Positions 774-54,867 of a DNA stretch of 64,000 nt are shown one piece after another (position 1 is the stretch's first letter; every line of letters begins with the position of its first letter). Origin of the DNA: Candidatus Saganbacteria bacterium (GTDB lineage Bacteria > Margulisbacteria > WOR-1 > JAKLHX01). The notes beneath the pieces were generated by a model. It ran no database searches and was not told the DNA's origin. It worked only from the letters and a program-made list of their open reading frames with translations. Location of the stretch: positions 9,369 through 73,368 of the forward strand of contig JAPLKZ010000013.1 of assembly GCA_026387835.1 (NCBI GenBank), written 5' to 3'. The position numbers were made by a program, and so were the translations under genes.

Positions 774-886
774 TATATATTTTCCTCCATTGGGTAAATT
801 ATAGCATTTTGGAAAGCTGCAAGCTCTAAGCGGTAAAAGGGGAAGATCGAAGGCAGGATGGCGGACAAATTGCTGATGAGTATGAT

Positions 887-14395: not shown

Positions 14396-15114
14396 TTTGC
14401 CGTTTCAATCGCCTTTATAAAGGCTTCCTCAAGACTTTTTGTTCCGTATAGATGTTTAATATTGTCCGGCGTATCGCAGTTGAGAAGATGTCCTTCCCGT
14501 ATCAGCGCGATGCGGGTACATCTCTCGGCTTCGTCCATATAAGGGGTGGTGACTACGATCGTCACATCTGTCAGCCCGTAAAGGATCCGCCAGAACTCTC
14601 TTCGGGATATCGGATCTACCCCGAGCGTCGGCTCGTCAAGCATGATGATCTCGGGTTTGTGTATAAGGTTGGTGGCAAGGGCGAGTTTTTTTTGCATACC
14701 TCCGGAAAGGTTCTTTCCTCTTCTGTCAGCGAATTTAGACATGCCCGTGAACTCCAGCAGTTCCTTCTTTTTCGGGCCGATCTCGCTTTTGGAAAGTCCA
14801 TAGATCTCCGCGAAAAAATTGATGTTCTCATCAACGGTCAGATCTCCATAAAGAGCAAAACGCTGGGGCATATAGCCGATCCGGTCGCGGATTTCCTCTT
14901 CCTGATTTTTGGTGTCAAACCCGAGGACAAACGCTTCTCCTGAAGTCGGGGTCATAGCTGTGGAGATAAGACGCATGGTCGTACTTTTTCCGGCACCGTC
15001 AGGGCCGACAAGGCCAAAGATCTCACCGGGACGGACCTGAAGGTCTAAGCTATTTACCGCCGTGTTATTGCCGAACTTTTTGGTGAGTTTTTTTGTCTCT
15101 ATTGCGAATTGCAT
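14392..15114 (-). CDS. ABC transporter ATP-binding protein
   Basis: Walker A GPDGAGKST, signature LSGGMQKKLALA, Walker B IIMLDEPT. Confidence 0.9.
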   Translation of the reverse strand: MQFAIETKKLTKKFGNNTAVNSLDLQVRPGEIFGLVGPDGAGKSTTMRLISTAMTPTSGEAFVLGFDTKNQEEEIRDRIGYMPQRFALYGDLTVDENINFFAEIYGLSKSEIGPKKKELLEFTGMSKFADRRGKNLSGGMQKKLALATNLIHKPEIIMLDEPTLGVDPISRREFWRILYGLTDVTIVVTTPYMDEAERCTRIALIREGHLLNCDTPDNIKHLYGTKSLEEAFIKAIETAK

Positions 15115-15890
15115 AAGAACTCGCCGTCTGCCGGCATTCCGGGTTTTAAGATATGGTCCGGATTTGGGACGATGACTTTGATCTTATAGACATATGTTGT
15201 TCTTTCTTCCTGTGTCTGGATCGGCTTTGGGGTGAACTCTTCTTTGTCGGATATATAGGAGACCCATCCCATAAAAGGTTTTTTTGGCTGTGAATCGATC
15301 GTTACCTTGACCTTATCACCCAATTTCAGCTTTCCGACAACCTTGTCCCCGACATATAAATACAGTTTGACCTGGTCAAGGTTTGCCATTGTCGCGATAG
15401 GCGACCCCGGCACAACAAGTTCTCCCATTTCAATCGCCTTTGAAAGTATTGAACCTTTGATAGGAGATGTGATCGTTGTATAGCCCAGCTGATTTTCGGC
15501 AAGAGTCAGAGCTGCTGCCATAGCTTCATAGTTATGCTGGGCCGTGTCAAGCTGGTCAGCGCTGATAGAGCGGGTCGCATACGCTTCTTTGTTGCGCTGC
15601 AGCTCTTTCTTGGCCAATTCGCATTTCGCCTTGGCGCTGTCAAGCTGGGCCTGATAATCCTGTCTTTCAACCTGACACAAAACTTCGTTTGTGACGACAT
15701 CCGATCCCTCATCGATATTCAACTGGATGATACGGCCTGTAACCTTGCTACTGACCACGATCTCGGTCACCTCTATGGTCCCGCTCCCGTAGATCCCCTT
15801 GTTTAAAGAACGGAGCGCAAAGAAAGTCCCGTATCCGGCTACCATAATAACAACGAACACGATCCCGATGATGATCAAACGCTTATTCAT
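15099..15890 (-). CDS. HlyD-family secretion adaptor protein
   Basis: 263 aa with an N-terminal TM, coiled-coil and beta-barrel MFP features; first gene of the HlyD-ATPase-ATPase-permease-permease-TolC operon. Confidence 0.85.
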   Translation of the reverse strand: MNKRLIIIGIVFVVIMVAGYGTFFALRSLNKGIYGSGTIEVTEIVVSSKVTGRIIQLNIDEGSDVVTNEVLCQVERQDYQAQLDSAKAKCELAKKELQRNKEAYATRSISADQLDTAQHNYEAMAAALTLAENQLGYTTITSPIKGSILSKAIEMGELVVPGSPIATMANLDQVKLYLYVGDKVVGKLKLGDKVKVTIDSQPKKPFMGWVSYISDKEEFTPKPIQTQEERTTYVYKIKVIVPNPDHILKPGMPADGEFLCNSQ

Positions 15891-16045
15891 TTCTTTCCCT
15901 CCTTATTGAACTTAATTGCTTAAGATTTTCATATTATAACAATATATTTTAGGTTTGCAAACAACTTACGGAAATGAAGGAATATATTATAAGCCAGTGT
16001 TTACTAGCTAGGTCAAATAATAATACAAAAATGTAGAATGCCGGG

Positions 16046-16074
16046 TTGATTATACCAAAATTGTATCGTATAAT
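16046..16074 (+). promoter_or_regulatory. Sigma70-type promoter (TTGATT-17 nt-TATAAT) for the activator gene; only 6 nt separate it from the ATG, so the mRNA is leaderless-like
   Basis: TTGATT at 16046-16051, a 17-nt spacer, TATAAT at 16069-16074, ATG at 16081. No Shine-Dalgarno sequence is present. Confidence 0.5.
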
Positions 16075-16080
16075 AATTAT

Positions 16081-17637
16081 ATGACCGAACTAAAAGGTGT
16101 GCTTTTACAAAGGAAAGTCCATGAACTTACAGCGTTGTATGAGATCAGCCAGGCGCTCGGGCTTACCCTTGACATGGAAAGATCCATGTATTCGATAATG
16201 GAGGTCCTGGATAAACATCTGGGCATGACGAGGGGAACGGTCACTCTCCTGCATTTGCATACGGGAGAGCTTTTTATCGAAGTCGCTCACGGTCTTACGG
16301 AATCGGAAAAGAAAAGAGGTATTTATAAGATCGGTGAAGGTATCACGGGAAAAGTAGTTGAGACCGGTGTGCCGGCAATCATCCCGAAAATAGGGGAAGA
16401 GCCGTTATTTTTGAATAAGACCAAAGCAAGAAAAAAAGATGTCGTTAAAAAGGACATCTCGTTCATCTGTGTCCCGATAAAGATCGGCAAGAACGTGATA
16501 GGAGCTTTTTCGGTCGACAAGATATTCAGCCCTGATATGCCGCTTGAAGAGGATGTCAGGTTTTTGACAATAGTCGCTTCGATGATCGCACAGTCGGTAA
16601 AGATACACCAGTTGATCCAGTCAGAAAAGGATAAATTGCTGGAGGAGAATATAAACCTGCGCGAGGAGTTGAAGCAGAAATACAGCTTCAAGAACATAAT
16701 CGGCAACAGCAGCAGGATGAGCGAGGTCTTCATGATGATAGGCCGTGTGGCAAAGAGCGACGCGACGGTCCTTATTAGAGGGGAATCCGGGACAGGTAAA
16801 GAGCTGGTCGCGCACGCCATACATTATAATAGTCTCCGTGCGAAAAGGCCCTTCATAAAGGTCAACTGCGCGGCGCTTCCCGAGAACCTGATAGAGGCAG
16901 AGCTTTTTGGATACGAAAGAGGAGCTTTTACAGGGGCGTTCGAAAGAAAGGCCGGAAGGTTCGAGCTGGCAGAGGGCGGGACGATCTTCCTTGATGAGAT
17001 AGGAGACCTCAGCCAGTCGACGCAGGTAAAACTTCTCCGGGTGATACAGGAAAGAGAGTTCGAACGTCTTGGCGGCACTGAAACGATAAAATGTAATGTC
17101 AGACTGATAACCGCGACCAACCAGAACCTGGAAAAACTGATAAGCGAACACAATTTCAGAGAAGACCTTTATTACAGATTGAACGTATTTCCGATATATA
17201 TCCCTCCTTTGCGTGAAAGAAAGGACGATATCCTGCTTCTTTCGGAATATTTCCTGGAAAAATATGCCAAGGAGAACAAGAAGAACATAAAAAGAATATC
17301 AACCCCGGCAATAGATGCGCTAATGAGTTATCACTGGCCCGGCAACGTTAGGGAACTTGAGAACTGTATCGAAAGAGCGGTACTTATGTGCGAGGGAGAG
17401 GTGATATATGCGCATCACCTGCCCCCGACGCTCCAGACGGCTACCGATACAAAGACAGAGATAAAGCAGTCGCTCGAAATTCTTGTTTCCGGCTTTGAAA
17501 AAGATATTATCGTGGATGCTTTAAAAACCATGCGCGGGAACATATCAAGATCAGCAAAGCTGCTTCAGACCACCGAAAGAATATTCGGCTATAAACTTAG
17601 CCAGTATGATATCGATTACAAAAAATACCGCGCCTAA
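16081..17637 (+). CDS. Sigma54-dependent transcriptional activator of NifA type (GAF-AAA+-Fis HTH) with no receiver domain
   Basis: N-terminal GAF domain, Walker [15 protein letters not shown] motif (ERGAFTGA), [10 protein letters not shown], and a C-terminal HTH. It sits at the head of the amtB-glnK-glnA-gltBD cluster. Confidence 0.85.
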
Positions 17638-17736
17638 TACCTCCAAAACTACAATAACGTAAAATATTCTGTAGGCATTCTACAAAATTGTTATCAGTTG
17701 CCGCGCTTTCCCTCTAATGTTCTCTTGATCTTCCCT

Positions 17737-17753
17737 CGGCAGGCAAATTGCTC
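17737..17753 (+). promoter_or_regulatory. Sigma54 (-24/-12) promoter candidate
   Basis: cGGCAGgcaaaTTGCT has GG-N10-GC spacing and matches the TGGCAC-N5-TTGCW consensus; it lies about 40 nt upstream of the ATG at 17791. Confidence 0.55.
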
Positions 17754-17790
17754 ATCTTTCTGTCAAACAGGCCGGAAAGGAGACGGAATC

Positions 17791-18477
17791 ATGAGAAAAG
17801 AATATCTGATAAAGACCCTGCTGCTTTTGTTGCTATTAAGTGCAGCGTCCGAGGCGACCCCATCCACACAGATATGGAATCCGTCAACGGATATCCAGGC
17901 AAAAGGGGCCTGGCATTTTGGAATAGATAATTATTTCACGGTGCAGGGCCCTGCCGACGGAGGATACGCTTTTCCGACTGATGCCGGACTGGAATACGGC
18001 CTTACACCAAATATTGAATTAGGGCTCGATATTTTTGAGCCCCAGGCTAGTCCGTTGGCTTTCAACGCGAAGTTCGGGCTTCCGGAAAACGAAAGTATTC
18101 CGGCTTTTGCTGTGGGAGGATACGGTTTCGGGACTTCGGCAGGAGTGACGGACCAAAATGTTTTATACGGAGTGGTCGCCAAGACTTTCCCCGCGATAGG
18201 GCGTCTGACAGCCGGATATTTCTCTGGAAATTACAAAGTTCTTGTCGATCCCTCGGGGAATCCAGATAACAGCGGGATCATTCTTACCTGGGACAAGTAT
18301 TTGACGGACAAGATCTGGGCATGCGTTGATTATGCGGGCACAAAATCAACCCTTGGCGCGCTGTTTTACGGATTTTCTTACGCGTTCTCACCGAATACTT
18401 CAATTATATTCGGATACGGTACATATAATAATGGGGCAAAGCCTGTCGTGACAACTCAGCTTGACATAAATATTTAG
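17791..18477 (+). CDS. Secreted/outer-membrane hypothetical protein, probably co-transcribed with amtB
   Basis: RBS GGAGA; signal peptide MRKEYLIKTLLLLLLLSAASEA; Gly/aromatic-rich and beta-strand-like. 14 nt separate it from amtB. Confidence 0.5.
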   Translation: MRKEYLIKTLLLLLLLSAASEATPSTQIWNPSTDIQAKGAWHFGIDNYFTVQGPADGGYAFPTDAGLEYGLTPNIELGLDIFEPQASPLAFNAKFGLPENESIPAFAVGGYGFGTSAGVTDQNVLYGVVAKTFPAIGRLTAGYFSGNYKVLVDPSGNPDNSGIILTWDKYLTDKIWACVDYAGTKSTLGALFYGFSYAFSPNTSIIFGYGTYNNGAKPVVTTQLDINI

Positions 18478-18491
18478 AAAGGAGAAATAAG

Positions 18492-19712
18492 ATGATAAAT
18501 TCAGGAGATACGGCCTGGGTCTTGATCTCGACGGCATTAGTCATATTGATGACCCCCGCGCTTGCATTTTTTTACGGGGGAATGGTGAGAAAAAAAAATA
18601 TCCTGTCGACGATCATGCTTTCAGTGACGATCCTCGCACTTATATCGGTCCAGTGGGTATTATACGGGTATACTTTATCATTCGGTCCCGACAAGCATGG
18701 TCTGATAGGCGGTCTTAATTGGCTCGGACTGTCAGGGGTGGGCCAGCAGCCGTTTGCGGGTTATGCTCCTACAATACCGCATCTTGCTTTTATGGCGTTC
18801 CAGATGGCGTTCGCGATAATCACGCCGGCTTTAATAACCGGTGCTTTTGTTGAAAGGGTCAATTTTACGGGATTCCTTGTCTTCATCCTTATGTGGTCCA
18901 CTTTTATATATGCGCCGGTCGCTCACTGGGTCTGGGGAATAGGGGGTTGGCTGAGAAATCTCGGCGCCCTGGATTTTGCGGGCGGAACGGTCGTTCATAT
19001 CACTGCCGGGGTCTCGGCTTTGGCCATGGCCCTGGTCATAGGGAAAAGAAAAGGGTATAAAAAATTCCCGATGGAACCATCGAACATCCCTTTTACGATT
19101 CTCGGAGCATTTCTTTTGTGGTTCGGTTGGTTTGGCTTTAACGGGGGATCGGCGCTTTCGTCAGGCGGACTGGCAACATCCGCTTTTGTAGTCACTAACA
19201 CTGCAGCAGCAGCGGCAGCCCTGACATGGATGATAGTGAGCTGGGTGCATAAAAGACCCAGTGCTCTTGGCCTTGCTACCGGAGCGGTTGTCGGGCTTGT
19301 CGCAATAACTCCGGCATCCGGGTATGTCAGTCCGTTATCATCAATAATAATCGGATCAGCAGCTGCAATTATCTCATATTATGCCATCCTGATAAGGATG
19401 AAAAGCAATCTTGACGATTCTCTTGACGTTTTTGCCTGTCACGGGATGGGAGGGATCACCGGAGCGCTTATGACGGGCTTGTTCGCGGAAAAGGTCATAA
19501 ACCCGGCAGGAGCGAACGGTCTATTCTTTGGGAACCCCCATCAGTTCTACATACAGTTATTTACTGTCGTAGTTGTTGCTGTTTTCGCCTTTACAGTAAG
19601 TTTTATCCTTGCAAAGGTGGTTGATGCGGTTTTCTCGCTTAGGGCAACTGACAGCGAGGAAGATGTCGGGCTTGATATAAGTCAACATGGGGAAAGCGCA
19701 TATTCTATCTAA
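18492..19712 (+). CDS. amtB: Ammonium transporter
   Basis: 406 aa, 11 TM, with the Amt signatures (DFAGGTVVHI..., twin-His context). Confidence 0.95.
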   Translation: MINSGDTAWVLISTALVILMTPALAFFYGGMVRKKNILSTIMLSVTILALISVQWVLYGYTLSFGPDKHGLIGGLNWLGLSGVGQQPFAGYAPTIPHLAFMAFQMAFAIITPALITGAFVERVNFTGFLVFILMWSTFIYAPVAHWVWGIGGWLRNLGALDFAGGTVVHITAGVSALAMALVIGKRKGYKKFPMEPSNIPFTILGAFLLWFGWFGFNGGSALSSGGLATSAFVVTNTAAAAAALTWMIVSWVHKRPSALGLATGAVVGLVAITPASGYVSPLSSIIIGSAAAIISYYAILIRMKSNLDDSLDVFACHGMGGITGALMTGLFAEKVINPAGANGLFFGNPHQFYIQLFTVVVVAVFAFTVSFILAKVVDAVFSLRATDSEEDVGLDISQHGESAYSI

Positions 19713-19862
19713 AAAATGAGTATTTGCTGATTAAGGTGAAGATACAAAAATGTAGTATATATATAAATAAAGATACATTTATGTATTACAAATAATAAAT
19801 AAAACCGAAGGGCATTAAAAATATTTGGCCTGAAATAGGCAAAAAGAATAAAAAGATAGATT

Positions 19863-19878
19863 TGGCGGTGAAATTGCT
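19863..19878 (+). promoter_or_regulatory. Sigma54 (-24/-12) promoter
   Basis: TGGCGGTGAAATTGCT is a near-perfect match to the TGGCAC-N5-TTGCW consensus, 43-58 nt upstream of the amtB2 ATG. A weaker tandem candidate TGGCCTGAAATAGGCA lies at 19826-19841. Confidence 0.65.
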
Positions 19879-19920: not shown

Positions 19921-21141
19921 ATGATAAACAACGCAGATACGGCATGGGTCTTGATCTCGACAGCGTTGGTGATACTTATGACGCCGGCATTGGCATTATT
20001 TTATGGTGGAATGGTAAGAAAGAAAAATATTCTTTCGACTTTAATGTTATCAATCGCAATACTTGCGATGATATCGGTCACATGGGTTCTGTTCGGTTAT
20101 TCTTTGGCATTCGGGCCTGATAAGCACGGAATAATCGGTGGGTTGGAGTGGGTAGGCCTAAGGGGGATCGGGGCAGCCCCCAATGCATCATATGCGGCAA
20201 CTGTCCCTCATCTGGCTTTTATGGTATTTCAGATGGCATTTGCGATAATCACGCCGGCACTGATCACGGGGGCTTTCGTCGAAAGGATAAATTTTCCCGG
20301 ATTCCTGCTGTATGCATTTTTGTGGTCAACATTTATCTATTGTCCGGTAACTCACTGGATCTGGGGGGCGGGCGGATGGCTGAAGAACATGGGAGTTCTT
20401 GATTTTGCCGGAGGTGCGGTCGTGCATATAACAGCAGGAATTTCGGCTCTGGCGGTAGCGTTAGTCGTTGGGAAAAGGATGGGATATAAAAAATATCCCA
20501 TGGAACCATCTAGCATACCATTGACGGTAATAGGTGCTTTTCTTTTATGGTTCGGCTGGTTCGGCTTCAACGCAGGTTCGGCGCTTTCATCGGGCTGGAT
20601 CGCCACATCAGCTTTTGTCGCTACAAATACATCCGGGGCTGCCGCAGCCTTTACCTGGATGATAATAAGTTGGATACATAAACGTCCAAGTGTTCTTGGA
20701 ATTTGCACAGGAGCTATAGTAGGGCTGGCTGCAATAACACCGGCAGCGGGATTTGTAAGCCCGCTTTCGGCGATCGCTATAGGCTCGGTGGCAGCGATTA
20801 TTTCGTATTATGCGATCATCATAAGGATGAAAACGAATCTGGACGATTCTCTCGATGTCTTTGCCTGCCACGGGATGGGAGGCATAACAGGGATGTTAGC
20901 TACAGGACTTTTAGCGGAAAAAGCAATAAACCCTAACGGAGCGAACGGTTTATTTTTCGGGAATCCCGGACAATTCTATATCCAGCTGCTGGCAGTCGCG
21001 GTTATCGCAGTATTCTCGTTCACAGTAAGTTTTACGCTCGCAAAGATCGTTGACGCGATGTTCTCCCTCAGGGCCACGGAGGATGAGGAAGAGATCGGCC
21101 TCGATCTTAGCCAGCACGGTGAAAGTGCTTATTCGATCTAA
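19921..21141 (+). CDS. amtB: Ammonium transporter (second tandem paralog)
   Basis: 406 aa, roughly 75% identical to the upstream copy over its full length. Confidence 0.95.
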   Translation: MINNADTAWVLISTALVILMTPALALFYGGMVRKKNILSTLMLSIAILAMISVTWVLFGYSLAFGPDKHGIIGGLEWVGLRGIGAAPNASYAATVPHLAFMVFQMAFAIITPALITGAFVERINFPGFLLYAFLWSTFIYCPVTHWIWGAGGWLKNMGVLDFAGGAVVHITAGISALAVALVVGKRMGYKKYPMEPSSIPLTVIGAFLLWFGWFGFNAGSALSSGWIATSAFVATNTSGAAAAFTWMIISWIHKRPSVLGICTGAIVGLAAITPAAGFVSPLSAIAIGSVAAIISYYAIIIRMKTNLDDSLDVFACHGMGGITGMLATGLLAEKAINPNGANGLFFGNPGQFYIQLLAVAVIAVFSFTVSFTLAKIVDAMFSLRATEDEEEIGLDLSQHGESAYSI

Positions 21142-21161
21142 AAAAATAGGAGGTGTTTAAG

Positions 21162-21506
21162 ATGGGATTTAAAAAAATTGAGGCGATAATAAGGCCTGAA
21201 AAACTCGAAGATGTCAGGGTGGCACTTGAGGCTGCGGGGTTCATTGGCATGACAGTTACCGAAGTTAAAGGAAGAGGCAGTCAAAAGGGAGTCGTCCTCG
21301 AATGGAGGGCGGGAGAGTACAGGGTCGAGTTCCTCTCAAAATTGAAGATAGAGATCGTAGTGGACGAATTTGACTCGGAAAGGGCGGTAAAAGCGATAGA
21401 AGAAGCGGCCAGGACGGGGAAAACAGGGGATGGCAAGATATTTTCATACGCGGTAGATAACATAGTCCGGGTCAGGACCGGGGAAAGGGGGAACAAAGCT
21501 CTGTAA
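21162..21506 (+). CDS. glnK: PII nitrogen regulatory protein
   Basis: Contains TVTEVKGRGSQKG...EY (T-loop) and TGKTGDGKIF. RBS AGGAGG 9 nt upstream; immediately downstream of amtB. Confidence 0.9.
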   Translation: MGFKKIEAIIRPEKLEDVRVALEAAGFIGMTVTEVKGRGSQKGVVLEWRAGEYRVEFLSKLKIEIVVDEFDSERAVKAIEEAARTGKTGDGKIFSYAVDNIVRVRTGERGNKAL

Positions 21507-21555
21507 AGATAAATATCCCGCGCCCTTACAAATAAATAATAGGAGGAGAATTGAA

Positions 21556-22890
21556 ATGACGAGCAAAGAAGAGATATTAAAACAGGTTAAAGATAACAAT
21601 ATTGAATTTATTAGATTATGGTTCACTGATATCAACGGTATCCTTAAAAGTTTCGCGATCGGACCAGATGAACTCGAGGGTGCGCTGACGCAGGGAATGG
21701 GCTTTGATGGATCGTCAATAACAGGGTTCCAGGACATCGAGGAATCAGACATGATAGCGATGCCGGACACGGAGACATTCGCTATTCTTCCATGGAGACC
21801 GCAGGAAACCCCGGTTGCAAGGATGATCTGTGATATCTTCCAGCCTGCAGCCGGCAAGCACAAACCTTACGAAGGTGATCCGCGGTTTATTTTAAAAAGG
21901 GCATTGGAGAAGATGAATAAAATGGGTTTCGATCATTTTTATGTGGGACCCGAGCTCGAATATTTTTATTTCAAAAACTCCGAAGGTACCGAGATCCTGG
22001 ACCAGGGCGGATATTTTGATCTTACTCCGCTTGATATGGCATCTGACCTGAGGCGTGATACCATCAAAGCGCTGAGAAGGCTTGGCGTGGTAATAGAATA
22101 TTCCCACCATGAGGTCGCTCCTTCACAGCATGAGATAGATATGAGATATGCCGACGCGCTGAAGATGGCGGACAATACGGTCACATACAAGCTGACCGTA
22201 AAAGAGATCGCATCAATGCATGGAGTATACGCTACTTTCATGCCGAAACCGATCTTCGGGCAGAACGGGAGCGGCATGCATGTCCACCAGTCGCTGTTCA
22301 AGGGAAAATCAAATGCCTTTTATGATGCAAATGACAAGTACAATCTGTCAGATATAGCAAAATCATATATCGCCGGCATCTTGAAACACGCGCCTGAAAT
22401 GATATCGATACTTGCTCCGGGGGTGAATTCATATAAAAGACTGGTGCCAGGGTTTGAAGCTCCTGTGTATATCGCCTGGTCAAGGCGCAACAGGTCGGCT
22501 CTTGTCAGGGTTCCCATGTACCAGCCGGGCAAAGAAGTGGCGACCAGGATGGAATTGAGATGTCCTGATCCATCGGGAAACCCATACCTTCAATTCGCGG
22601 TCATGTTACAGGCCGGCTTAAAAGGGATCCAAGAAGGTTATAAACTTCCTGAGCCGATGGAACTTAACCTGTATCATCTGAGCGATGAAGAAAGGGCGGA
22701 GCGCGGAATAAAATCTCTTCCTGCAAGCCTCGGCGAAGCCATCGCAATAACGGAAAAGAGCGAGCTTGTCAAAGAAGCTCTTGGCAAACACACATTTGAA
22801 AGATTCATAACTGTAAAAAAACAGGAATGGGATGATTTCAGGATCCAGGTCACGGAGTATGAAATAAAGAGGTATTTGCCGATATTATAA
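21556..22890 (+). CDS. glnA: Glutamine synthetase, type I (about 444 aa form)
   Basis: Gln-synt N and C domains with signatures (…FDGSSI…, …NGSGMHVHQS…). RBS AGGAGG. Confidence 0.95.
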   Translation: MTSKEEILKQVKDNNIEFIRLWFTDINGILKSFAIGPDELEGALTQGMGFDGSSITGFQDIEESDMIAMPDTETFAILPWRPQETPVARMICDIFQPAAGKHKPYEGDPRFILKRALEKMNKMGFDHFYVGPELEYFYFKNSEGTEILDQGGYFDLTPLDMASDLRRDTIKALRRLGVVIEYSHHEVAPSQHEIDMRYADALKMADNTVTYKLTVKEIASMHGVYATFMPKPIFGQNGSGMHVHQSLFKGKSNAFYDANDKYNLSDIAKSYIAGILKHAPEMISILAPGVNSYKRLVPGFEAPVYIAWSRRNRSALVRVPMYQPGKEVATRMELRCPDPSGNPYLQFAVMLQAGLKGIQEGYKLPEPMELNLYHLSDEERAERGIKSLPASLGEAIAITEKSELVKEALGKHTFERFITVKKQEWDDFRIQVTEYEIKRYLPIL

Positions 22891-22899
22891 GTTAAAATA

Positions 22900-22931
22900 A
22901 GGCGGGGCGGCTGTCGTCCCGCCTATTTATT
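22900..22931 (+). terminator. Rho-independent terminator after glnA
   Basis: A GGCGGG…CCCGCC stem followed by ATTTATT. Confidence 0.55.
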
Positions 22932-22943
22932 CAGTATCGATGC

Positions 22944-23183
22944 GTGAAAAATAGGCAAAAGAACATGAAAATCGACGAAATAAAAAAAGACCTTAATGAG
23001 ATGTTCTTTATCGAATACAGGGGAAAAATATACAAAACTCTTGTGGAAGCGCTGGAAAAACAGATGTTTGAAGCGACGCTCGATTATACGAACGGGAACA
23101 AGCTCAAATCCGCGAGAGTTTTAGGGATAAACAGAAATACGCTTTCTGCAAAGCTGAAAAAGTTAGGGCTGTGGAGGATTTGA
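22944..23183 (+). CDS. Stand-alone Fis-family HTH DNA-binding protein
   Basis: 79 aa; the C-terminus LKSARVLGINRNTLSAKLKKLGLW matches the Fis/NtrC C-terminal HTH. Its stop TGA abuts the gltB ATG. Confidence 0.6.
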   Translation: MKNRQKNMKIDEIKKDLNEMFFIEYRGKIYKTLVEALEKQMFEATLDYTNGNKLKSARVLGINRNTLSAKLKKLGLWRI

Positions 23184-49977: not shown

Positions 49978-50114
49978 TGTTTTTCCTTTCCTGTTTTTCC
50001 CGCAAAAAAACGCGCAAAGTATCCTTGACCGTTTAAATAGGGGTTTGTTTATGTGCAGTTATTGACTGCGCTTACATTATTATAGCACAAAATTTTCACG
50101 GGGCTTGACAGAAC

Positions 50115-53559: not shown

Positions 53560-54867
53560 TTGATGAATAAAATTCTTATCTTTTCAAAAGACCCGTCAGT
53601 CTGCCCCGGCATCGAAAATATGCTTAGCGGCAGTTACAACGTGCACAGCGTTTCAGACCTGAACGAAGCTCTCGAGCACATGAGGAACAAGCATTCCGAC
53701 ATCATAGTGATCGACGGCGACTGCGAGGGGATAAACGGCCTTGAAGCCTTTAAGACCATAAAAAGCGTGGTGCCGCACCTGAAGGCAGTGATGATCTCAA
53801 AGAAAGGCAATATCAACGAAGCTGTGGCAGCCGCAAAAAAGGGAGTACTCGAACTCATACCCAAACCGCTAAGCAAGGAATCGCTGGAGGGATCGATCGA
53901 AAAGATAATTTCAAGGTCGCAGTATCCCGGAAGGATGGTCATTCCTGATGACACGGTCCCATGGCTTGAAGGGACAAGCGCTGTTGTACAGGAGATGTTC
54001 GTTAAGATCGAGGAGGCGGCTTTAAGCGAGCAGGATGTGATGCTTATCGGCACTATAGGCGCTTCAAAAAAAATGGTCGGCCGCCTGATCCATGACAATT
54101 CCCCTAACAGGAAAAAGAAATTTATTGAACTGAACCTGACGGCTTTTGAAAAGGAGTCTTCAGAATCCATGTTCTGGACGGCCGTGAACGAGCTTCTTGC
54201 CGATCATTCATCTGATACAAGGTCCGAGAAAGAGGCCAGCGGCACTATATTCCTGGACGGGTTCGACCTCCTGCCGGTGCATTTTGAGCAGAGCATCCTG
54301 GAATTCCTGAAGAACAGGAGCGCTGCCAAGATCGACAAGTCTATCAAGATAATTCTTGGTACGGCCGGCGACATTGCCGTCAGTATGGAAGGCAAGGGAA
54401 AGTTGATCGAAGATTTTATAAAGATCCGCATCCCTGAAATAGAGGAAAGAAAAGAAGATATCCCTGCGATGCTCAAAGCATATACCGATAAATTTTGCGC
54501 AAGACATGACAAGAACATCAAGGGTTTTTCATCCGACGCGCTTCAACTCATGATGGACTACAGCTGGCCGGGGAACTGCGACGAGCTGAGTTCCGTGGCC
54601 GAAGCGGCCGTGCTGAGAGCCAAGGGCGATTACATAGATATTTCCGACCTGCCGGTGGACTCTTCAATGATACTGGGCGCGTCGCTTAAAAAGGCCATGG
54701 TCAAAGGGGATTGGGACCTTTCATCCTCAAAAGATATATTCCATAAAAGATTGATAAATACAGTGCTAAAGAGCAGCGGGAACGACACTGATGCCGCCTC
54801 AAGGATCCTGGACGTTCCGAAAACTACCATCCTGGACAGCGTCAAAAAGCTCGGGATACGTATCTAG
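53560..54867 (+). CDS. Degenerate NtrC-like enhancer-binding-protein homolog (REC-like, pseudo-AAA+, HTH), predicted ATPase-dead
   Basis: Walker A is degraded to GTIGASKK; Walker B FLDGF has the catalytic Glu replaced by Gly; no GAFTGA. The WPGNCDEL box and C-terminal HTH are retained. Confidence 0.6.
   Translation: MMNKILIFSKDPSVCPGIENMLSGSYNVHSVSDLNEALEHMRNKHSDIIVIDGDCEGINGLEAFKTIKSVVPHLKAVMISKKGNINEAVAAAKKGVLELIPKPLSKESLEGSIEKIISRSQYPGRMVIPDDTVPWLEGTSAVVQEMFVKIEEAALSEQDVMLIGTIGASKKMVGRLIHDNSPNRKKKFIELNLTAFEKESSESMFWTAVNELLADHSSDTRSEKEASGTIFLDGFDLLPVHFEQSILEFLKNRSAAKIDKSIKIILGTAGDIAVSMEGKGKLIEDFIKIRIPEIEERKEDIPAMLKAYTDKFCARHDKNIKGFSSDALQLMMDYSWPGNCDELSSVAEAAVLRAKGDYIDISDLPVDSSMILGASLKKAMVKGDWDLSSSKDIFHKRLINTVLKSSGNDTDAASRILDVPKTTILDSVKKLGIRI

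Follow-up and report, generated by a model that had tools for sequence, protein, structure and literature searches.

Paired TACA-N4-TGTA boxes as putative sites of a NifA-like sigma-54 activator at an ammonium-assimilation locus of Candidatus Saganbacteria

Described activator sites and the boxes of the window

In enteric bacteria, the NtrC enhancer of glnAp2 consists of two strong sites three helical turns apart, near -140 and -108, and NtrC represses glnAp1 and glnLp from sites that overlap a sigma-70 promoter. Regulation of nitrogen assimilation by a NifA-like protein outside the Proteobacteria has a precedent in the non-diazotroph Aquifex aeolicus, whose NifA-like protein AQ_218 was reported by Studholme and colleagues in 2000 to bind about 100 bp upstream of glnBA. 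The present work concerns a 64-kb stretch of DNA from a Candidatus Saganbacteria bacterium (hereafter the window; all coordinates are window positions), in which palindromic boxes of the form TACA-N4-TGTA lie beside the gene of a NifA-like protein and upstream of amtB, glnK and glnA genes. The closest described sites belong to two other activators. AnfA of Rhodobacter capsulatus uses two palindromic TAC-N6-GTA sites 5' of the anfH sigma-54 promoter, as established by electrophoretic mobility shift assays and mutagenesis; both sites are required for full activity, and the protein carries a conserved cysteine motif in its N-terminal/GAF region (PMC7294313). VnfA of Azotobacter vinelandii recognises GTAC-N6-GTAC, and chromatin immunoprecipitation sequencing of VnfA1 returned GT(T/A)C-N6-GTAC; mostly two motifs are present at a constant spacing, which was read as a sign of cooperative binding (PMC9542535).

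The putative activator of the window is encoded at 16081-17637 on the plus strand. Pfam domains and the translation describe a protein of 518 amino acids with a GAF domain (not a receiver), a sigma-54 AAA+ domain that retains both Walker A (GESGTGK) and GAFTGA, and a Fis-type helix-turn-helix (HTH) domain, HTH_8. Three pairs of boxes spaced by 30-31 bp were found: A1/A2, B1/B2 and C1/C2. Pair A overlaps the activator's own sigma-70-type promoter, and pairs B and C lie upstream of -24/-12 promoters. From the observed sites, their statistics, their arrangement and their conservation, we infer with a probability of roughly 0.8 that these boxes, in wider form cTAC-N6-GTAg, are the DNA sites of the adjacent activator, which would work by the full scheme set out below. 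A preliminary description of this DNA had already suggested an upstream activator site and autoregulation, without recognising that every site has a partner at 30-31 bp. Position, dyad symmetry, pairing, placement before -24/-12 promoters and conservation beside orthologous activators in many phyla now lend support to the first suggestion; the conserved site in front of the activator gene does so for the second.

The locus resembles the AnfA system in its dyad core, in the presence of two sites before a sigma-54 promoter and in the GAF/AAA+/HTH architecture of its activator. It differs in its apparent targets, which are amtB, glnK, glnA and the activator gene instead of an alternative nitrogenase, in its longer consensus, cTACA-(A/T-rich N4)-TGTAg, in its host, a relative of the Margulisiibacteriota, and in the absence of the N-terminal cysteine motif. 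The VnfA site likewise contains TAC-N6-GTA and comes as paired motifs of similar spacing, whereas its flanks are G...C as opposed to c...g in the window boxes, and its regulon and metal/cysteine sensing are different. Because the window protein has neither the N-terminal cysteine motif of AnfA and VnfA (its first cysteine is residue 130) nor nitrogenase neighbours, it is, as judged from sequence, not an ortholog of either. No nitrogenase or nif gene was found among the window open reading frames (ORFs) that were annotated, a subset of the total. Its sites and architecture would make it AnfA/VnfA-like at the DNA level and NtrC-like in its physiology.

With NtrC the locus would share sigma-54 control of glnA, amtB and glnK and negative autoregulation at a sigma-70 promoter, and two sites lie three helical turns apart here as well, pair C being centred at about -140/-109; it differs in having a one-component GAF sensor in place of a phosphorylated receiver domain, and in the sequence of the box. 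No site resembling TGCACC-N5-GGTGCA was found in the window's regulatory regions, and an NtrC-type enhancer was rejected on this ground and on the domain content of the activator (GAF, no receiver). The classical proteobacterial NifA upstream activator site is also an enhancer about 100 bp 5' of a -24/-12 promoter serving a GAF/AAA+/HTH activator, and the window protein passes the nifA cutoff; in the window boxes, however, the half-sites stand in the opposite order around a different spacer. TGT-N10-ACA occurred 10 times in the window against 7.1 expected, was absent from the three regulatory regions and was not enriched in the regulatory regions of the family, so that this site type was discarded as well. 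The motif thus differs from both the NifA and the NtrC sites, as had been noted before.

Pair A opens with A1 (TACAAAAATGTA, 16024-16035), an exact match and the second-best hit in the window to a position weight matrix (PWM; score 16.6). The weak A2 (ACCAAAATTGTA, 16054-16065; score 6.1) lies 30 bp away, within the -35/-10 spacer. Upstream of the promoter of an operon that includes amtB1 (omp-amtB1), the distal enhancer site B1 (TACAATAACGTA, 17650-17661; 13.3, fourth best) is followed 31 bp further on by the proximal B2 (TACAAAATTGTT, 17681-17692; 15.2, third best), an inverted copy. The amtB2 promoter is preceded by the distal C1 (TACAAAAATGTA, 19743-19754), an exact match and, with a score of 16.9, the best hit in the window, and 31 bp from it by the proximal C2 (TACATTTATGTA, 19774-19785), also exact and scoring 13.2. 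The previously noted identity of the 12-mers at A1 and C1 is exact. The variant TACATTTATGTA, which had been placed at 19784-19795, does exist and follows the second copy by 31 nt, but its coordinate had slipped by 10 nt. TAC-N6-GTA is exact in A1, B1, C1 and C2, and A2 and B2 keep one half of it.

A reverse-oriented copy with a shared flank had been reported at 17674-17691, and the sequence bears this out: the reverse complement of GGCATTCTACAAAATTGT at these positions is identical to 16025-16042 at 15 of 18 bases, including GTAGAATGCC. This 10-mer stands at 16032-16041, by A1, and as its reverse complement at 17674-17683, by B2; the AATGCC in the flank goes beyond the TGTAG of the consensus. 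GAATGC is also found beside the A site of one related locus (L004; L numbers denote the homologous loci considered below), but at the B site the relatives do not retain a flank of this type.

The activator gene is preceded by a sigma-70-type promoter, TTGATT-17-TATAAT, at 16046-16074 on the plus strand (10/12 matches in a promoter scan). Its -35 hexamer begins at 16046, 10 nt after the end of A1. Two sigma-54 promoters lie on the same strand. The first, cGGCAGgcaaaTTGCT (cGGCAG-N5-TTGCT, 17737-17752), was found by pattern match in front of omp-amtB1, and its GGC...ATTGCT is invariant in the alignment with relatives; the second, TGGCGGtgaaaTTGCT (TGGCGG-N5-TTGCT, 19863-19878), is a zero-mismatch pattern match in front of amtB2-glnK-glnA and is conserved in relatives. 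The distances given in the preliminary description were correct, the first site lying 10 nt before the -35 hexamer, the second 109 nt before 19863 and the reverse-oriented third 46 nt before 17737. Measured from site centres to the GG of the -24 element, the distances are 83 bp for B1, 52 bp for B2, 116 bp for C1 and 85 bp for C2, all close to whole helical turns; enhancers of -24/-12 (GG-N10-GC) promoters typically sit some 70-200 bp 5' of them. The activator ATG (16081) is the seventh base past the -10 hexamer TATAAT, which leaves no room for a ribosome-binding site, and for this reason the activator mRNA is probably leaderless. The same -10-to-ATG geometry is seen at the activator gene in L002 and L005.

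Four copies of TACA-N4-TGTA are present in the window against 0.36 expected, a count reached in 0 of 100 shuffles, and TAC-N6-GTA occurs 13 times against 4.3 expected. The GC content of the window is about 47%, so that the excess does not simply reflect AT-rich DNA. The fourth exact copy, at 16128-16139 inside the activator coding sequence, was not counted as a functional site: it is coding, is not conserved in relatives and is probably due to chance. A PWM hit at 50071 was likewise attributed to chance, as it coincides with the PPDK gene's TGcTATAAT promoter region and lacks a -24/-12 element. A scan for intrinsic terminators did not pick out any of the boxes.

The boxes in homologous loci

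Homologs of the activator (49-78% identity) were collected from 80 loci in a scan of one genome per species. The closest loci are metagenome-assembled genomes of Candidatus Margulisiibacteriota; the others belong to Acidobacteriota, Thermodesulfobacteriota/Desulfarculus, Myxococcota, Planctomycetota, Hydrogenedentota, Lentisphaerae, Verrucomicrobiota, Nitrospirota and Bacteroidota. Across these phyla the homologs repeatedly adjoin amtB-glnK, glnA or gltBD. In a distant set of 72 loci, from which five close relatives were left out, the exact motif had a density of 1.17 per kb over the 200 bp that precede the activator gene, compared with 0.026 per kb elsewhere, an approximately 45-fold enrichment. 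A site with at most one mismatch was found in the same 200-bp interval in 38 of the 72 distant loci. In many loci the exact motif stands 20-100 bp 5' of the activator gene, including loci with a GC content of 66-68% (L016 and Archangium L018). The family consensus is cTACA-(A/T-rich N4)-TGTAg; the inner bases drift in Desulfarculus-type loci (CTACAAATTGGTAG), where TAC-N6-GTA is retained. A PWM built from distant loci only returned the five strong window sites as its top five hits in the 64 kb.

The arrangement of the sites is conserved together with their sequence. Spacing was 29-32 bp in 35 of 42 close site pairs from all loci, with a family peak at 30-31 bp, and sites were located 42-151 bp 5' of the -24 GG in the sigma-54 promoters predicted for amtB, glnK, glnA and nifH. 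Paired sites before sigma-54 promoters were found in Acidobacteriota, Planctomycetota, Myxococcota and Thermodesulfobacteriota, even at 66-68% GC. Positions relative to the -24 element showed helical phasing (R=0.46 at 10.5 bp, p ~2e-4, a value obtained from related loci that are not independent). A degenerate second site occupies the position equivalent to A2 in L001, L002 and L005. In Bacteroidota, sites lie upstream of a paired-PII cluster of nif-type appearance, and some Bacteroidota and Spirochaete homologs have a pair of PII genes next to them, resembling that of the nifH-nifDK cluster on the Desulfovibrio vulgaris plasmid pDV1.

The motif was also recovered by a search for all palindromic trimer dyads with spacers of 0-14 bp in the regulatory regions of non-redundant distant loci, with the window and its close relatives excluded. 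The top dyads, ACA-N4-TGT (z=19), TAC-N6-GTA (z=18) and CTA-N8-TAG (z=14), are nested parts of CTACA-N4-TGTAG, and the next, GCA-N7-TGC, is the sigma-54 promoter itself. The earlier suggestion of a lineage-specific recognition sequence does not hold, since the motif is common to many phyla, and its core, TAC-N6-GTA, is the AnfA consensus and is contained in the VnfA site. These comparisons support the reading of the recognition sequence as an ancient and widespread code of the AnfA/VnfA type. They also suggest that TAC-N6-GTA extends far beyond the alternative-nitrogenase systems that defined it. A literature search found no description of this motif for nitrogen-assimilation genes (amtB/glnA) or in these phyla.

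Several homologous loci showed features of their own. In L082 (D. vulgaris pDV1), at about 15114-15147, a perfect CTACAAAAATGTAG box is accompanied at 18 bp by a weaker one, some 100 bp 5' of the TGGCACatcccTTGCC of the nifH operon; 18-bp pairs also occur in the Nitrospirota loci L071 and L075, unlike the 30-31 bp of the main family. N-terminal cysteine pairs (C5/C12; C10/C15) that recall the AnfA/VnfA motifs are present in the homologs of L052 and L053 (Bacteroidota) and of L065 (Verrucomicrobiae). In L053 the homolog neighbours a PII gene pair of the kind found in the pDV1 nif cluster, and the contig of L052 is too short to show neighbours.

Proposed mechanism and alternative explanations

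In the scheme that we favour, the activator's C-terminal HTH would bind as a dimer at each palindrome. With a second palindrome three helical turns (30-31 bp) away, the bound activator would lie along the same side of the DNA and seed assembly of the active oligomer, which, from a position about 50-120 bp 5' of the -24 element, would reach sigma-54 RNA polymerase through a DNA loop. When nitrogen is scarce, the omp-amtB1 and amtB2-glnK-glnA promoters would then be opened at the expense of ATP. The nitrogen signal is presumably read by the GAF domain, either directly, as 2-oxoglutarate, or via PII/GlnK. Bound at the activator's sigma-70 promoter, pair A would confer negative autoregulation by promoter occlusion; this is the most likely role of the pair, the sign of the control being read from its position only.

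Some observations weigh against this scheme. A2 is weak, and it is again from position that repression was preferred to activation at the activator promoter. The rpoN gene is absent from the window. About half of the distant loci have no site upstream of the activator gene, which means that autoregulation is not universal. A further point comes from the recognition helix. The family HTH consensus is RGNxxKAAxxLxxTERIxG(Y/L)(K/R), yet the Nitrospirota homologs and DVUA0143 of D. vulgaris have the T(P/S)RQxGY(K/R) helix of NifA type and nevertheless possess CTACA-N4-TGTAG boxes near nitrogen genes. These boxes (L071, L075 and pDV1) form the 18-bp pairs and lie near glnB-glnA, downstream targets or nifH. 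They contradict the idea that TER-type and NifA-type helices separate motif-positive from motif-negative loci, which was rejected, and helix type alone does not explain specificity.

The boxes could be real and yet be bound by a different protein, namely a 72-amino-acid Fis-type HTH protein encoded in the window, an NtrC-like regulator encoded at 53560-54867, or an unlinked global nitrogen regulator, in which case the activator would use other DNA or none. The two further HTH_8 proteins encoded in the window would fit such an exchange, as would the imperfect correspondence between HTH subtype and motif. We nonetheless regard it as unlikely: in many phyla the motif accompanies the activator gene, directly in front of it; none of the 80 loci encodes a stand-alone homolog of the 72-residue protein; and the 53560-54867 regulator is without Walker A and GAFTGA and so should be unable to drive sigma-54. 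Phased pairs about 50-140 bp 5' of the -24 element are, moreover, the signature of a bacterial enhancer-binding protein (bEBP), and AnfA and VnfA, which have the same architecture as the window activator, bind this very consensus. A narrower objection accepts pairs B and C as enhancers and denies that pair A is an autorepression operator; it could instead mediate positive autoregulation, serve the divergent HlyD/ABC operon or be part of the promoter architecture, TACAAT resembling a -10 hexamer. The weakness of A2 is compatible with this, and in several Acidobacteriota the box nearest the ATG starts with TACAAT and could double as a -10, the upstream boxes of the same loci also serving a divergent amtB sigma-54 promoter. 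Against it, there is no -24/-12 element in either direction within 15891-16080, the site remains beside the activator gene in relatives whose upstream neighbour is a different one, and a strong site at the -35 combined with a weak one in the spacer is a classic layout for occlusion, like that by which NtrC represses glnAp1 and glnLp. We consider this explanation very improbable and retain negative autoregulation as the preferred reading of pair A. Finally, the motif is short, with an A/T-rich centre, and has one exact copy in coding DNA (16128-39), as might be expected if the boxes were functionless chance palindromes in AT-rich intergenic DNA. This explanation is effectively refuted by the shuffles, by the rank that the independent PWM gives to the five sites, by conservation in GC-rich genomes and by the enrichment, the 30-31 bp spacing peak and the dyad scores (z=18-19).

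If the activator does bind these boxes, they give a concrete cis-element and regulon to a regulator that is annotated by pipelines as "nif-specific NifA" in spite of its position beside ammonium-assimilation genes; JGI, for example, calls matching C-terminal fragments "Nif-specific regulatory protein". The PWM and the rule of pairs at 30-31 bp could serve to predict nitrogen regulons in many uncultured phyla. More tentatively, with the odds somewhat short of even, one may envisage a largely undescribed circuit that spans Margulisiibacteriota, Acidobacteriota, Planctomycetota, Myxococcota, Thermodesulfobacteriota, Lentisphaerota and others. In these phyla a one-component NifA-like GAF activator would, rather than NtrBC, exert the main control over amtB, glnK and glnA, and in places over gltBD or nifH, using an ancient grammar of paired, phased cTACA-N4-TGTAg boxes with an operator at its own promoter. 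The proteobacterial AnfA and VnfA would then be specialised offshoots retaining this DNA code, and the TGT-N10-ACA of proteobacterial NifA a derived form. The question bears on whether nitrogen-fixation regulators evolved from, or into, regulators of nitrogen assimilation.

The NifA label itself is marginal. Against the NCBIfam model TIGR01817 (nifA) the activator scored 534.4 bits, for a cutoff of 528.85, with the best stretch covering profile positions 3-439 of 534. Partial coverage of the profile was also seen in two homologs and in DVUA0143. The match ends before the HTH, at about position 440, in every protein tested, and this does not set the activator family apart. A tblastn search of plasmids with the C-terminal 78 amino acids gave only three weak hits, a word-index search with the HTH peptide gave no matches, and a profile of 30 family HTHs matched only short fragments, either unnamed or annotated "Nif-specific regulatory protein".

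Neighbouring genes and further observations

Upstream of the activator gene, the minus strand carries an operon of hlyD and ABC efflux genes. Downstream, the order is the gene of a 228-amino-acid secreted protein, amtB1, amtB2, glnK, glnA and a terminator, followed by the gene of the 72-amino-acid Fis-type HTH protein, gltB, gltD and a gene with a PPDK_N domain. The first predicted target operon (17791-19712, plus strand) comprises the secreted protein and AmtB1 (Pfam Ammonium_transp, 6e-122), with synteny in L003, L004 and L043. The second (19921-22890, plus strand) consists of amtB2, glnK (PII) and glnA, identified by Pfam and NCBIfam matches and separated by short intergenic gaps. It ends, as read from the sequence, at an intrinsic terminator (22901-22931, plus strand) made of a GC-rich hairpin and a T-run. 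No box or sigma-54 promoter was found 5' of gltB in the window.

The 228-residue protein, the first product of the omp-amtB operon with its predicted sigma-54 promoter (17791-18477, plus strand), has a signal peptide and could not be assigned to a family of Pfam or NCBIfam. Its conservation in relatives from Margulisiibacteriota/WOR-1 is 71-72% (L003 2207-2887, L004 7700-8389 and L043 7667-8323), and a secreted-protein gene between the sigma-54 promoter and amtB is likewise seen in other phyla. The protein may form a channel in the outer membrane and be co-regulated with AmtB.

Between the glnA terminator and gltB, at 22965-23183 on the plus strand, lies the gene of the stand-alone HTH_8 protein of 72 residues. 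Its nearest matches are Fis and the NtrC C-terminus, all under the curated cutoffs. An architectural protein for sigma-54 promoters and a regulator of gltBD are candidate roles for it. The NtrC-like protein encoded at 53560-54867 (plus strand) is the only other product of a bEBP-like gene in the window. It has a receiver domain, a degenerate sigma-54 AAA+ domain and a C-terminal HTH, with GTIGASKK in place of GESGTGK and GAFTGA missing. It is probably unable to activate sigma-54 and may be a plain DNA-binding response regulator.

Another perfect -24/-12 match, TGGCGGACAAATTGCT (859-874, plus strand), similar in style to the amtB2 promoter, lies 5' of a small YraN-like ORF (887-1255) and yifB (1268-2800); no TAC-N6-GTA box was found upstream of it. 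In Acidobacteriota, gltBD directly follows the activator gene (L013, L015, L016, L019 and L077). The activator-gltB gap of these five loci yielded neither a -24/-12 promoter nor a strong box. A conserved stretch of the aaagcaaATACCGTTTT type recurs in the activator-gltB gap of Acidobacteriota loci.

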